Positions 21,597 through 43,743 of a stretch of 64,000 bases of DNA are shown here, piece after piece. Source of the DNA: Escherichia phage 215Ecol030PP; the sequence record PP328843.1. The stretch is one strand, 5' to 3'. The notes below the pieces were generated by a model, which was not told the origin of the DNA, searched no databases, and saw nothing but the letters and a program-made list of their open reading frames with translations. Position 1 is the stretch's first letter. The number at the start of each line of letters is the position of its first letter. The position numbers and the translations under genes were made by a program.

Positions 21597-22565
21597 TTAT
21601 TTCAGAAGAGTAACCTCAGCAATTTCTTCCCAACCGTTTTTGTCGGTCATAATAAAGTCAGCAAGATAAAGTGCAGTACGCAGTGAAACATTGCGTAAAC
21701 GGTTAACATTGACTTTCATCCATGATAATGCTTTATAAGTTTCTTCATCAGAAAGACCGCGCTTTTGCATCATGTCGGTTGAAAGAATAACATCTTCAAC
21801 CCTGACCATAATTTCTTCATTAGTGTGAACACCCAAATCTAAATAAACTGAGCGGGACACTAATGCTTGTAAATGTGGAGCGAGTTTAGTACCACGGTCT
21901 AATTCGCGGTCAATATCAACGTTTGTGATAAAAACAATCGTTCCTTTAAATTCAAACTCACGCTCAATGCCTTTTTCTTCTAAGTAAGAAGATGCAGTGC
22001 TCCAGCAGACTTTACGGGTCTCTCCAGTGTCCAGAGCAGCTTTCAGAAGATTAAGAATGTCCATATCAGAGAAAACATCCACATCATCAATCAAAAGGAC
22101 AGAATTCTCTTCACGATTATTCCAAAGCTGCTCATAAAGACCGATACCGGAGATTTTACCATTAATGCTTTTATACTCAATGTATCCAATATCATTTGCT
22201 TTATTCAAAGCTTTATCTAAAGAATACGTTTTACCAATACCTGCCGCACCAGAGATAATTAATGAACGAATGTTTCCGTTAATAATACCATTCGTCATCA
22301 TTCCCATAACATTAAATCTTTTATTAATGCGGGTTTTCATATCTTCATATGATTCTTTAACTTCTTCAACTTTTACACCATCATATGAAATGTCTGATTT
22401 GTAAACCCAAACACCGCGACGCTTACCGTCAATTTCAACAAAAACTTTACCATCTCCTTGTGCATCTACCGGAGCATTATCTGGGAACCATTCACCTAAG
22501 AGCTCAAAAGTTCCAGAGATTTCTTTACCGAAGTAGATACCCTTATTGATAGTTACAGTTTTCAT
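21597..22565 (-). CDS. P-loop NTPase (about 322 aa)
   Basis: Walker A GAAGIGKT and Walker B LLIDDVD. Confidence 0.6.
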   Translation of the reverse strand: MKTVTINKGIYFGKEISGTFELLGEWFPDNAPVDAQGDGKVFVEIDGKRRGVWVYKSDISYDGVKVEEVKESYEDMKTRINKRFNVMGMMTNGIINGNIRSLIISGAAGIGKTYSLDKALNKANDIGYIEYKSINGKISGIGLYEQLWNNREENSVLLIDDVDVFSDMDILNLLKAALDTGETRKVCWSTASSYLEEKGIEREFEFKGTIVFITNVDIDRELDRGTKLAPHLQALVSRSVYLDLGVHTNEEIMVRVEDVILSTDMMQKRGLSDEETYKALSWMKVNVNRLRNVSLRTALYLADFIMTDKNGWEEIAEVTLLK

Positions 22566-22601
22566 TTTATTCTCCAATTTCACATTTGTTTTGATAGGGT
22601 A

Positions 22602-22631
22602 ATAGTATCACACTACTACCCTTCTGTAAAC
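22602..22631 (-). promoter_or_regulatory. T4-type early promoter
   Basis: Minus strand GTTTAC, 18-nt spacer, TGATACTAT. Confidence 0.55.
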
Positions 22632-34125: not shown

Positions 34126-34656
<531 letters not shown>

Positions 34657-39196: not shown

Positions 39197-39272
39197 TGGT
39201 CGAGGCAGTAGGGATCGAACCTACGACCCAGGACTTAGAAGGTCCTTGCTCTTCCTTCTGAGCTATGCCCCG
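39197..39272 (-). tRNA. tRNA-Arg (anticodon UCU)
   Basis: Hand-folded cloverleaf: acceptor CGGGGCA/TGCCTCG, anticodon loop CTTCTAA, T-loop TTCGATC, CCA encoded. Confidence 0.8.
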
Positions 39273-39276
39273 TAAT

Positions 39277-39352
39277 TGGGGTGACCGATGGGAGTCGAAC
39301 CCATGACTACGAGAATCACAATCTCGAGTTCTACCAACTGAACTACGGCCAC
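39277..39352 (-). tRNA. tRNA-His (anticodon GUG), no encoded G-1
   Basis: Acceptor GTGGCCG/CGGTCAC, anticodon loop TTGTGAT, discriminator C73, CCA encoded; base at -1 is U. Confidence 0.75.
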
Positions 39353-39466
39353 ATTAATACCTACTCCAACAATCAAGATGTCTTCACACGAAATTAAGAG
39401 AAGAGTGATCAGTTCAACCCCTATAATCGCGTCAAGTAGATATTAATGTGACAGTTGTCACAAATT

Positions 39467-39541
39467 TGGCGGACGTGATAGGATTCGAACCTATAACCAA
39501 TCGCTTAACAGGCGATCGCTCTGCCATTGAGCTACACATCC
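39467..39541 (-). tRNA. tRNA-Asn (anticodon GUU)
   Basis: Acceptor GGATGTG/CACGTCC, D-arm GCTC..GAGC, anticodon loop CTGTTAA, T-loop TTCGAAT, CCA encoded. Confidence 0.8.
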
Positions 39542-39545
39542 AAAT

Positions 39546-39632
39546 TGGTGGGGAGTGATGGAGTCGAACCACCCGAGTCGCAATGACAATGGATTTACAG
39601 TCCACACCGCTACCTCTACGGGATAACTCCCC
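39546..39632 (-). tRNA. tRNA-Tyr (anticodon GUA), long variable arm
   Basis: Acceptor GGGGAGT/ACTCCCC, anticodon loop CTGTAAA, about 14-nt variable arm, T-loop TTCGACT, CCA encoded. Confidence 0.75.
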
Positions 39633-39645
39633 TTAATTCTTAATT

Positions 39646-39720
39646 TGGTGGCCCTGGGTGGAATTGAACCACCATCTGGCGATTATGAGTCGCTTGCTTG
39701 AACCTTCCAGCTACAGGGCC
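39646..39720 (-). tRNA. tRNA with anticodon CAU (probably Ile, lysidine-type, as in T4; Met by naive reading)
   Basis: Acceptor GGCCCTG/CAGGGCC, anticodon loop CTCATAA, T-loop TTCAATT, CCA encoded. Confidence 0.7.
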
Positions 39721-39728
39721 AAATTTTC

Positions 39729-40214
39729 TTATTTTATGTAATATTTATTTAAAAACTTTCTAGCTTGAGTATGGCTAACATTTATAGCGTTTGCATAATT
39801 TTTAATAAAACCTCGTTCATCCATATTAAAATTTTCTAATATTTTTAATCGTCTAGTTATCTCATCTTGACTTAAGGTACTTGCATTATTTTTAGAAATT
39901 TTTTCTAAGGACTGTGCCGAGTGTTTTCGACCATTAAAATTAAAATTTTTAGATTTTGGAGGAAATCTAGCATTTAATCTCGCATCTTTTGTATTTTGAT
40001 TATTAGTTGCGCAATATATGTTATTTAATGAATATGGTCCTTTATCGCCGAAACGGCACATGCAGTATTCATGACCCTTTCTTCCACGCTTATCATAATT
40101 TCCCGTTGATTTCCACCAATGCAGCCATTCATCAAAAGTTAAATTCCATTCAATGTTTCTACGTATAGCAGAATTCCGCTGAGAAATATATTTTGCATAA
40201 TCTTCTTTCATCAC
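39729..40214 (-). CDS. hypothetical basic protein inside the tRNA cluster (segB position), possible DNA-binding/nuclease-like; family unresolved
   Basis: 161-aa ORF; no GIY-YIG or HNH motif recognised; Cys/His cluster GHEYCMCRFGDKGPYSLNNIYC and C-terminal helix-turn-helix-like tail. Confidence 0.45.
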   Translation of the reverse strand: MMKEDYAKYISQRNSAIRRNIEWNLTFDEWLHWWKSTGNYDKRGRKGHEYCMCRFGDKGPYSLNNIYCATNNQNTKDARLNARFPPKSKNFNFNGRKHSAQSLEKISKNNASTLSQDEITRRLKILENFNMDERGFIKNYANAINVSHTQARKFLNKYYIK

Positions 40215-40258
40215 AAATTTCTCTACTTATTCAATACACTGAGCTAAATCAGCAAAAC

Positions 40259-40348
40259 TGGCGGAGGCGATAGGATTTGAACCTATGAGTCGCCGGAGCG
40301 ACTGCCGGTTTTCAAGACCGGTGCATTAAACCACTCTGCCACGCCTCC
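40259..40348 (-). tRNA. tRNA-Ser (anticodon UGA), long variable arm
   Basis: Acceptor GGAGGCG/CGCCTCC, anticodon loop CTTGAAA, long variable arm, CCA encoded. Confidence 0.8.
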
Positions 40349-40350
40349 AG

Positions 40351-40424
40351 TCTCCGCGGCAGGATTTGAACCTACGACATTCTGCTCCCAAAGCAGACGC
40401 TCTACCAAACTGAGCTACACGGAG
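40351..40424 (-). tRNA. tRNA-Pro (anticodon UGG)
   Basis: Acceptor CTCCGTG/CGCGGAG, D-arm GCTC..GAGC, anticodon loop TTTGGGA, T-loop TTCAAAT. Confidence 0.8.
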
Positions 40425-40434
40425 TAAATTAAAT

Positions 40435-40508
<74 letters not shown>

Positions 40509-40513
40509 AAATT

Positions 40514-40600
40514 TGGTGCGAGAAGTGGGACTCGAACCCACAAGGAAATCATTCCGCAGCATTTTAAGTGCTGTGCCTTTACCAATTTGGCCATTCTCGC
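40514..40600 (-). tRNA. tRNA-Leu (anticodon UAA), long variable arm
   Basis: Acceptor GCGAGAA/TTCTCGC, anticodon loop CTTAAAA, long variable arm, T-loop TTCGAGT, CCA encoded. Confidence 0.8.
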
Positions 40601-40601
40601 G

Positions 40602-40674
40602 CTGGGAATAAAGGACTCGAACCTTTGCATCCTGGAATCAAAATCCAGTGCCTTACCAACTTGGCTAATTCCCA
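40602..40674 (-). tRNA. tRNA-Gln (anticodon UUG)
   Basis: Acceptor TGGGAAT/ATTCCCA, anticodon loop TTTTGAT, T-loop TTCGAGT. Confidence 0.8.
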
Positions 40675-40771: not shown

Positions 40772-41059
40772 TTACCATTTATAATAATACATATTTACGA
40801 TGCATTCAAGACCCAAAGGATTCTTGAAAATATCATATTCAAGAGGACCTTTTTCTGTTTCAATAAAGAAATCAAAATTTACTGTATTAAATTTACGTTC
40901 TTCCTTCACTAATTTAACTTGAGAAGATGAACGGTCAATGTAAACCTTTTCAACTTCAAAACATGTTAAAATGCCATAATCATCAATCAAAGCTTTAGCC
41001 GCGTCTTGATCATATTTATATCCATTTTCAACGGACGATACTTTCGCATAAAGAATCAT
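40772..41059 (-). CDS. hypothetical protein (95 aa)
   Basis: ORF upstream of the tRNA cluster. Confidence 0.5.
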   Translation of the reverse strand: MILYAKVSSVENGYKYDQDAAKALIDDYGILTCFEVEKVYIDRSSSQVKLVKEERKFNTVNFDFFIETEKGPLEYDIFKNPLGLECIVNMYYYKW

Positions 41060-41061
41060 TA

Positions 41062-41460
41062 TCAGCCTTCATCAACAATAGTGTGAGTATTAGCATTTAC
41101 GATTTGCCACCAATCAAAGCGATTAGAATCCATCGGTTTGTTTTCATTTTCTTTGATAATGTCACGGAGTTCATCTTCAGAGAATGCTTTAGCAATTAAA
41201 TCGGTATACCCACCACGGGGATAATAATTATCACCTGCAAACAAAAGGAAATTTACCTTCCCGGAAGCAACATATGCTTCCTTAGGATACTTGTTTCCTG
41301 CGTGGTCAACCACTTCAATATAACGGTAAGGAATATCGGTTCTTTCAACCCATTGCCATGCCGCCGCAGGGGAATCGAAAGCATCTACACCTAAACGATT
41401 ATCTTCATCTTTAGACGGATTATTTTCGTAATCCGCATATACATAATATTCAACGTTCAT
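41062..41460 (-). CDS. hypothetical protein (132 aa)
   Basis: ORF. Confidence 0.5.
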   Translation of the reverse strand: MNVEYYVYADYENNPSKDEDNRLGVDAFDSPAAAWQWVERTDIPYRYIEVVDHAGNKYPKEAYVASGKVNFLLFAGDNYYPRGGYTDLIAKAFSEDELRDIIKENENKPMDSNRFDWWQIVNANTHTIVDEG

Positions 41461-41645
41461 TATTCACCTTTAGAAATTTTATCCATAACAATAGCAATTA
41501 AACCAATTAAAAATGCTACTACAAGTGAAAAAACATTTTCTGCCGTAGTCAATAATCCGCATATAAATCCAACAAACATTGAAAAACTGAAAGCGGAAGC
41601 AGAAATTGCAATAGCAACATTTCGAATTAATTCACAACGTTTCAT
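41460..41645 (-). CDS. small membrane protein (about 61 aa)
   Basis: MKRCELIRNVAIAISASAFSFSMFVGFICGLL..., two hydrophobic helices. Confidence 0.45.
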   Translation of the reverse strand: MKRCELIRNVAIAISASAFSFSMFVGFICGLLTTAENVFSLVVAFLIGLIAIVMDKISKGE

Positions 41646-41673
41646 TTTATTCTCCTCAGTAGTAGATAGGGTA

Positions 41674-41703
41674 ATAGTATCACTACCCCATCTAAAAGTA
41701 AAC
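41674..41703 (-). promoter_or_regulatory. T4-type early promoter
   Basis: Minus strand GTTTAC, 18-nt spacer, TGATACTAT. Confidence 0.55.
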
Positions 41704-41937
41704 TTATTTTTTACGAAAAATTGATTTATTTTCTGCTGCCCATTTTTCAATAACTGCAGCAGGACCAGTAACAACAATTTTATCACCGTAATCTTCTGCG
41801 GCGAGTTGACCGAAATTATCTAATGCATCACGAAGAACTCCATGAGGCATTTCACCCATTTTATCTTTCTTGCCAGTGTAAATAAACTCAACTTTTACAT
41901 CAGCAGTTTCAGCAATAAATTCTTGGTAAGTTTTCAT
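41704..41937 (-). CDS. internal protein with canonical capsid-targeting sequence (77 aa precursor)
   Basis: Begins MKTYQEFIAE, the T4 internal-protein leader, followed by a small acidic protein; adjacent to 57B as ipI is in T4. Confidence 0.65.
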   Translation of the reverse strand: MKTYQEFIAETADVKVEFIYTGKKDKMGEMPHGVLRDALDNFGQLAAEDYGDKIVVTGPAAVIEKWAAENKSIFRKK

Positions 41938-41971
41938 TTTGATTTCCATTTGGTTTTGTTTTGATAGGGTA

Positions 41972-42001
41972 ATAGTATCACAACTAAAACCCTATGTAAA
42001 C
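41972..42001 (-). promoter_or_regulatory. T4-type early promoter
   Basis: Minus strand AAAGTTGTTTAC, 18-nt spacer, TGATACTAT. Confidence 0.55.
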
Positions 42002-42013
42002 AACTTTGTGAAA

Positions 42014-42271
42014 TTATTTTAAATCTTCTAATCGTTTCTTCATCTTAGAGCCATTTTTAGCAATTTCTCCTGCATCGGAGCATAATGCTAAAAGTGCTTT
42101 AACTTTAGTTTGGTCTCCTTTAAAAGATGAAGGATCGACCGCAGCAGCAAGTTCTTTAATACGAGAGAAAAGACGCTCAGCTTCAGCTAAAGCCATTCCA
42201 AGCTTTACTTCCATACCGTGGGAAGATTCAGTGATAGTAGTTTTTGTAGCAAACTCTTTGAAAGTTTTCAT
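42014..42271 (-). CDS. second internal-protein-like protein with variant capsid-targeting sequence (85 aa)
   Basis: Begins MKTFKEFATK, a variant of MKTYQEFIAE. Confidence 0.5.
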   Translation of the reverse strand: MKTFKEFATKTTITESSHGMEVKLGMALAEAERLFSRIKELAAAVDPSSFKGDQTKVKALLALCSDAGEIAKNGSKMKKRLEDLK

Positions 42272-42302
42272 TTTTATTTTCCTAATTAATTTTGATGAGG
42301 TA

Positions 42303-42332
42303 ATAGTATCACTACCTCATCAGTATGTAAAC
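42303..42332 (-). promoter_or_regulatory. T4-type early promoter
   Basis: Minus strand AAAGTTGTTTAC, 18-nt spacer, TGATACTAT. Confidence 0.55.
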
Positions 42333-42344
42333 AACTTTGTGAAA

Positions 42345-43029
<685 letters not shown>

Positions 43030-43030
<1 letters not shown>

Positions 43031-43743
43031 TATAGTACCTTTAGTGTATTTTTAATTTTAGAAAAAAGTTCTTCAAGAGAACCATCGTTTGTAATTACTA
43101 AATCGCCATCACGAATTGGCAATCCAGCTTCTGTAATATGAGTATCATTGGATTTTTGACCAGAACGAACTACATGAATTACTGTAGCACCCATCGCCCT
43201 AGCCGCATCCATTTCATGATCTTGACGAGTATCAGGAACGATATAATAATCATAACCTGAGTTAAATTTATCAAGATAATCTAAAGCAAATAATTTTACC
43301 CAATACATGCGGTCGAAGTTATTAACAATCAAATCCGTACCTAGGGCTTGCATCAGACGACGGACTGACCATTGATCTTCAATATTATTTATAACGTCAG
43401 TAATCTTATTAAATGCTACGAAATTAACTGCGTCATCAAAAACAAACACACCCTTAATTGGGCTTTTACCGTTAAGATAGCAAAATGCTTGTTCCATAAT
43501 CGTGATTACTTCTGATTTAGTCAGATTTAAATTAGTCTCACGATCATAGTCAATTCCTTCAAACTCTTTACGAGTTAAGCAAGGATAGTCAGTGTTTGCT
43601 GCAAATACTCCCCATGCATAAGCCAATGCATCCTTAATAGGACCAGCAAGTTGGTATTTAACTGCAGAATAATTGCTCATGATAAAATCAGCAGTAGTAT
43701 CTTTTCCACTACGCTTTACGCCGCTTAAAAAGATTAGTTTCAT
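43030..43743 (-). CDS. 1: deoxynucleoside monophosphate kinase gp1
   Basis: MKLIFLSGVKRSGKDT (P-loop) start; about 237 aa; T4 gp1. Confidence 0.85.

Follow-up and report, generated by a model that had tools for sequence, protein, structure and literature searches.

The window analysed here, a stretch of 64,000 nucleotides from Escherichia phage 215Ecol030PP (PP328843.1), holds two consecutive small genes, which we call ip5 and ip6, between 57B (acb1) and trna.4. This part of the window is transcribed from the minus strand throughout, in the order tRNA cluster, trna.2, trna.3, trna.4, 77-aa ORF (ip6), 85-aa ORF (ip5), 57B, 57A and gene 1 (Table 1). On the upstream side, 57B is 99% identical to 57B of T4, T6 and RB18, while the gene on the downstream side is the one annotated Trna.4 in both fFiEco06 and T4. 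The T4 genome has the same gene order, but carries a single gene, ipI, in the slot between 57B and trna.4 where this phage has two. The initial annotation had placed two small genes with capsid-targeting sequences (CTS) next to acb1 at the variable ipI locus, and both ORFs, the Pfam assignment of Acb1 and the match to the T4 ipI slot bear this out.

Table 1. Features of the internal-protein (IP) locus and its flanks, in window coordinates. An arrow in a leader marks the gp21 cleavage site.
Feature	Position	Strand	Remarks
tRNA cluster	39197-40674	(-)	
trna.2	40772-41059	(-)	
trna.3	41062-41460	(-)	
trna.4	41460-41645	(-)	61-aa hydrophobic protein; conserved flank on the downstream side of the locus; PHROG 1692, E = 6e-35
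trna.4 cassette (third copy)	41661-41731	(-)	-35 at 41698-41703; -10 at 41674-41679; hairpin 41666-41691
ip6 CDS	41704-41937	(-)	77-aa precursor; begins MKTYQEFIAE; ORF and PHROG 8111
Ip6 leader	41908-41937	(-)	MKTYQEFIAE↓T; identical to the T4 IPII/IPIII leader
ip6 cassette	41959-42029	(-)	-35 at 41996-42001; -10 at 41972-41977; hairpin 41964-41995
ip5 CDS	42014-42271	(-)	85-aa precursor; begins MKTFKEFATK
Ip5 leader and gp21 cleavage site	42227-42271	(-)	MKTFKEFATKTTITE↓S; aligns with the T4 IPI leader MKTFKEFTSTTTPVSTITE↓A
ip5 cassette	42290-42360	(-)	-35 GTTTAC at 42327-42332; -10 TACTAT at 42303-42308; hairpin 42295-42320
57B/acb1	42345-42803	(-)	conserved flank on the upstream side of the locus; Pfam Acb1, E = 3.4e-60
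57A	42800-43030	(-)	
gene 1	43030-43743	(-)	dNMP kinase
TATAAATA late-promoter-like motif (nearest upstream)	43386-43393	(-)	within gene 1, 356 nt ahead of 57A

By sequence, the two genes are the ip5 and ip6 of T6-like phages, already named and already known. Both proteins match along their full length to a PHROG family, the 85-aa protein to PHROG 3499 (E = 1e-49) and the 77-aa protein to PHROG 8111 (E = 1e-52), and the annotations of these two families read “internal head protein” and “internal virion protein”. The genes are annotated under these names in T6, RB15, fFiEco06 and VR7, some records using the names ipV and ipVI. In classical T6, which has the arrangement 57B-Ip5-Ip6, Ip5 shows 100% identity and Ip6 99%, and the locus DNA agrees at about 99%; Ip5 is also 100% identical to that in the RB15 record “DNA for Ip5, Ip9, Ip7, Ip8”. 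Compared with the Ip5 and Ip6 of T6, T2, RB15 and their relatives (99-100% identity), the locus, gene order, cassettes and leaders are alike and we find no difference of substance. The window is a further T6-like Tequatrovirus with a well-sampled allele pair. The initial annotation was thus correct in reading CTS proteins at the ipI locus, and missed their identity as the named ip5 and ip6.

Both genes are common among sequenced phages, with Ip5 in at least 245 and Ip6 in at least 268 of them. A megablast search with the 1.5-kb locus retrieved 770 phage records, 91 of them at least 99% identical, and in 220 records a single place aligns with 80% or more of the query. The T6 arrangement of the two genes is present in some 220 sequenced phages. 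As families they are very small, forming 5 (Ip5) and 11 (Ip6) clusters among 5.8 billion proteins, and an Ip6 profile run against 1.84 billion representatives gave only seven matches at E ≤ 0.001, five of which belong to the Ip6 family. As far as these searches reach, the Ip6 family is restricted to T4-like phages. Neither Pfam nor NCBIfam returned a family for Ip5 or Ip6.

The internal-protein genes at the locus come in differing combinations: T2 has Ip5 (98.8% identity) followed by another internal protein, RB18 has Ip6 without Ip5, and RB15 has Ip5-Ip9-Ip7-Ip8. The adjacency of the two genes in Tequatrovirus and Gaprivervirus suggested an obligate Ip5-Ip6 pair, which we rejected, since of the two RB18 carries only Ip6, and RB15 and T2 only Ip5. 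Mosigvirus has a relative of Ip5 with 48% identity in the second IP locus, the one flanked by e and denV. The IP cassettes are mobile. The synonymous divergence from RB18, which is 0.37 for ip6 as compared with 0.05 for 57B and 0.19 for trna.4, is above that of both flanks and fits exchange of the cassette. A longer series is seen in the Escherichia phage EAWsc9 (Gaprivervirus), where positions 235-1755 of the compared piece hold five consecutive leader-bearing ORFs between acb1 and trna.4, an Ip5-like and an Ip6-like ORF included, with the leaders MNIKTYNEFLAE, MKTFNEFFNE, MQTFHEFLVE, MKTYQTFITE and MKTYQEFINE; three of the five are labelled “profilin”, “homing endonuclease” and “hypothetical protein”, and look mis-annotated.

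The start of ip6 needs a short comment, as the program-made ORF reaches four codons further upstream, to an in-frame ATG at 41949 (MEIK-MKTYQ). No Shine-Dalgarno sequence precedes this ATG, while a GGAA lies 6-7 nt ahead of the ATG at 41937; the GGAA is conserved and is probably the Shine-Dalgarno sequence of the true ip6 start. Within 41938-41949 (minus strand) the upstream in-frame ATG belongs to the sequence ATGGAAATCAAA-ATG, and a near-identical ATGGAAACTAAA-ATG stands ahead of RB15 ip8. Some database entries begin Ip6 at the upstream ATG, giving a protein of 81 aa in which the leader would be buried.

The N-terminal leaders are the most telling feature of the two proteins. A six-frame scan of the 64 kb with MK[TS][YF]x[ED]F and with a looser pattern gave two matches only, and these are the N-termini of the two ORFs, so chance is excluded; no other ORF in the window has such an N-terminus. 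Each leader is closed by an L/I-x-E site of the gp21 type: IAE at residue 10 in Ip6, and ITE at residue 15 in Ip5, aligned with T4 IPI's own ITE. The leader read at first for Ip6 (MKTYQEFIAE) stands, whereas that of Ip5, first taken as 10 residues, is of the T4 IPI type and 15 residues long. In T4, IPIII needs no more than its first 10 residues to be incorporated into the head; within its leader, residues 4 and 7 are important for targeting and residues 8 and 10 for processing, and the prohead protease gp21 cleaves after the glutamate of L/I-x-E (review, PMC9026906). In the Ip6 family these four positions are conserved. In the family alignments of both Ip5 and Ip6 the aromatic residue at position 4, F7 and the cleavage motif are invariant, with I13-T14-E15 invariant in Ip5 and M1, K2, E6, F7, I8 and E10 invariant in Ip6. 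An allele of Ip5 with a leader of 10 residues (MQTYQTFITE↓SSHG) has an unchanged junction to the mature part, and distant relatives of Ip6, at 48% identity, retain MKTYQEF(I/M)xE↓A. Both proteins show sequence traits of T-even internal proteins, namely a leader of the MKT(Y/F)(Q/K)EF type with 10-19 residues, a gp21 site at its end, and a place in a polymorphic, cassette-flanked IP locus.

Cleavage at these sites would give a mature Ip6 of 67 aa (residues 11-77), with a near-neutral pI of 6.5, and a mature Ip5 of 70 aa (residues 16-85), with a pI of 9.2 and 13 lysines and arginines among its 70 residues. The IAE at residue 10 is the sole L/I-x-E in the whole of Ip6. Ip5 has two extra motifs, LAE30 and IKE40, both within its predicted first helix, so mature Ip5 could be smaller than assumed.

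Ahead of each gene is a conserved cassette, a 71-nt direct repeat (family D1) present in three copies, before ip5, ip6 and trna.4, in each of which 17 nt separate GTTTAC(A) from a TG-extended TACTAT. The cassette of ip5 overlaps the stop codon of 57B with its 5′ end, and that of trna.4 forms the downstream boundary of the IP locus. A generic sigma-70 scan, with 14 sites found against 11.9 expected, did not discriminate, and our promoter assignment is therefore based on the conserved cassette. The window has four copies of its core (GTTTAC-N14-GTGATACTATTA), where none would be expected. The initial proposal that each gene has an early promoter of its own and of like architecture is upheld by the 71-nt cassette ahead of both. 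Repoila et al. in 1994 reportedly described just such an arrangement, with a flank of about 70 bp made up of an early promoter plus an inverted repeat, a conserved leader of 11 residues and ten different IP ORFs. Papers that later cited this work give the same picture in outline.

An inverted repeat spans the -10 element of each cassette, forming hairpins of 7-11 bp with z-scores of -2.4 to -3.4. The stems vary among the cassettes (GATGAGGTA with TACCTCATC in one, ATAGGGT with ACCCTAT in another) and their pairing is always kept, which suggests selection on the hairpin structure. Read-through transcripts might owe their 3′ end or their stability to the hairpin, which could alternatively be a signal for recombination. 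The ip5 cassette is identical to those ahead of T4 ipI and RB15 ip5, whereas the ip6 cassette is a mosaic, its 5′ half matching the T4 trna.4 and RB15 ip9 cassettes and its 3′ half the RB15 ip8 cassette, a pattern such as recombination inside the conserved core would give. The fourth core copy in the window, GTTTAC-N14-GTGATACTATTACC, lies at about 22598-22631 (minus strand), ahead of an unrelated ATPase-like ORF of 321 aa (21597-22565; MKTVTINKG...) with a Walker-A motif; the 5′-UTR is nearly identical to the RB15 cassette ahead of trna.4. The promoter cassette is thus not exclusive to the IP locus.

Strong early-type promoters, together with the absence of an own TATAAATA late-promoter motif at either ip5 or ip6, would also suit a different reading, in which the leader is a relic of the ancestry of the cassettes and the two products act only as early cytoplasmic proteins that never enter the head. 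T4 ipI argues against this, since it has the identical cassette and likewise no late motif of its own, yet IPI is packaged. The retention of leader and cleavage site while the mature parts diverged to 48% is likewise unexpected for a vestige, and we regard this reading as very improbable. The nearest upstream TATAAATA motif, in gene 1, is at the same offset in T4, and between it and ip6 we found no terminator-like site, making it a possible source of late read-through over 57A-57B-ip5-ip6. With the same cassette and the same late motif, the transcriptional setting of ip5 copies that of the packaged T4 ipI.

The mature parts of the two proteins are a different matter. That both might simply be orthologues of T4 IPI was put forward at the start as the finding that would undo the first interpretation, and alignment to T4 IPI and the other internal proteins led us to reject it: BLASTP aligns only residues 1-14 of Ip6 and 1-22 of Ip5, the leader region, and the likeness to IPI, IPII and IPIII ends there, the mature parts being dissimilar. 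In T4, Ip5 may be compared with IPI/IPI* (Ip1), the injected inhibitor of GmrSD-CT596, which occupies the same slot between 57B and trna.4 behind an identical upstream cassette and has the same type of leader with an ITE end; it is basic, as Ip5 is, and its mature form has 76 aa as compared with 70 in Ip5. Ip6, being near neutral, is unlike the basic IPI*. In its leader, Ip6 is identical to T4 IPII and IPIII (Ip2 and Ip3, injected inhibitors of GmrSD-ECOR21/GmrSD-ECOR17), and its packaging and processing presumably follow the same logic; the mature regions are unrelated. The loci differ as well, since T4 ipII and ipIII lie between denV and e, whereas ip6 lies between 57B and trna.4. In this phage denV (33650-34066) abuts the lysozyme gene e (34126-34620) and this second IP locus is empty, leaving Ip5 and Ip6 as the only small leader-bearing proteins within the 64-kb window.

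Both genes are under purifying selection, the dN/dS of the window against diverged alleles being 0.04-0.35 overall and 0.14-0.35 for Ip6. In AlphaFold2 models, built from shallow alignments, Ip6 is predicted as a ferredoxin-like beta-alpha-beta-beta-alpha-beta fold (mean pLDDT 82) and Ip5 as a two-helix hairpin (mean pLDDT 71). As modelled, both folds are compact and generic. Neither resembles a known inhibitor or shows the IPI* fold, in which two beta-sheets are flanked by N- and C-terminal helices, and sequence searches of the PDB gave no relative of Ip5 or Ip6. Ip6 has a long invariant loop, G22-x-K-D-K-M-G-E-M-P31, which is missing in its distant relatives and which we infer from this to be a candidate specificity determinant.

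These properties bear on whether the two proteins have a host target at all, or are mainly passengers of the head, filling the core or acting as counter-ions to the DNA and thereby aiding packaging or ejection, with the diversity at the locus a result of relaxed constraint. The basic character of mature Ip5 would suit such passengers, as would the lysines of T4 internal proteins that touch DNA phosphates (PMC3012670), and with the second IP locus empty Ip5 and Ip6 would be the sole small internal proteins in the window. Mature Ip6, however, is neutral, and purifying selection along the full length of both proteins, together with the conserved Ip6 loop, points to a fold and a surface that are specific. 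Furthermore, T4 IPII and IPIII were long given precisely this role and proved to be specific inhibitors (PMC12373910). We consider it distinctly unlikely that Ip5 and Ip6 are passengers of this kind.

The reading we prefer, at a probability of roughly 0.55, is that ip5 and ip6 are interchangeable IP cassettes, the products of which would be made early, packaged, cut by gp21 and injected, each blocking one host defence. Each gene would be driven by its own early promoter cassette, probably with added read-through from upstream, and the N-terminal leader would target the precursor to the prohead's scaffolding core. There, gp21 would cleave after IAE10 in Ip6 and ITE15 in Ip5, and the mature proteins of about 7.4 and 7.5 kDa would stay with the DNA and be injected along with it at the next infection. 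Once inside, each would bind and neutralise one specific host defence against the incoming glucosyl-hmC DNA, most likely a particular subtype of GmrSD type IV restriction, as is the case for T4 Ip1, Ip2 and Ip3. Packaging, gp21 cleavage and injection are proposed from T4 genetics on identical or near-identical leaders, which argue strongly for packaging; the neutralisation of a host defence is proposed by analogy only. Our literature search found no virion proteomics for Ip5 or Ip6, nor functional papers devoted to them, and an injected anti-restriction role for the two proteins is the field's standing hypothesis.

The analogy itself is well documented in T4, where Ip1, Ip2 and Ip3 block a different GmrSD each, with no cross-protection (PMC12373910), and where leaderless IPIII made in the host cytoplasm is active (PMC9391042). 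T6, with Ip5 and Ip6, and T2, with Ip5, are both restricted by GmrSD-ECOR21 and GmrSD-ECOR17 unless T4 Ip2 or Ip3 is supplied. A 2025 screen, in which expressed ip4-10 were set against members of the GmrSD clusters common in enterobacteria, saw no reproducible inhibition (PMC12373910). This negative screen favours the alternative that Ip5, Ip6 or both are packaged and injected, and that the target lies outside the GmrSD family, in some other host system that acts at once, the candidates being another class of modification-dependent nuclease, a sensor of DNA ends or of DNA entry, or an abortive-infection trigger. The folds of Ip5 and Ip6 are unrelated, so nothing binds the two to one target class, and the neighbouring acb1 shows that the region holds counter-defences against non-nuclease immunity. 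The screen is nevertheless weak evidence, because GmrSD diversity is vast and eight active systems were covered (PMC12373910), and the targets known for internal proteins, three in number, are all GmrSD enzymes. We therefore think a target outside the family rather unlikely; if true, it would extend the injected internal-protein arsenal past type IV restriction.

Of all phage proteins, the internal ones come into contact with the host cytoplasm first, and few of those in T-even phages are as widespread as Ip5 and Ip6, which classical T6 also carries. Their targets would account for part of the differences in host range between T2, T4 and T6 and would aid the selection of strains for phage therapy; to the targets themselves the window contributes nothing new.

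Finally, the tRNA cluster downstream of the locus contains an ORF of 161 aa (39729-40214, minus strand) between tRNA-Met and tRNA-Ser, at a position occupied by tRNA-Thr in the close relative fFiEco06. The protein matched no Pfam family but does match PHROG 16521, of unknown function (E = 6e-55), and the ORF may be a mobile insertion.
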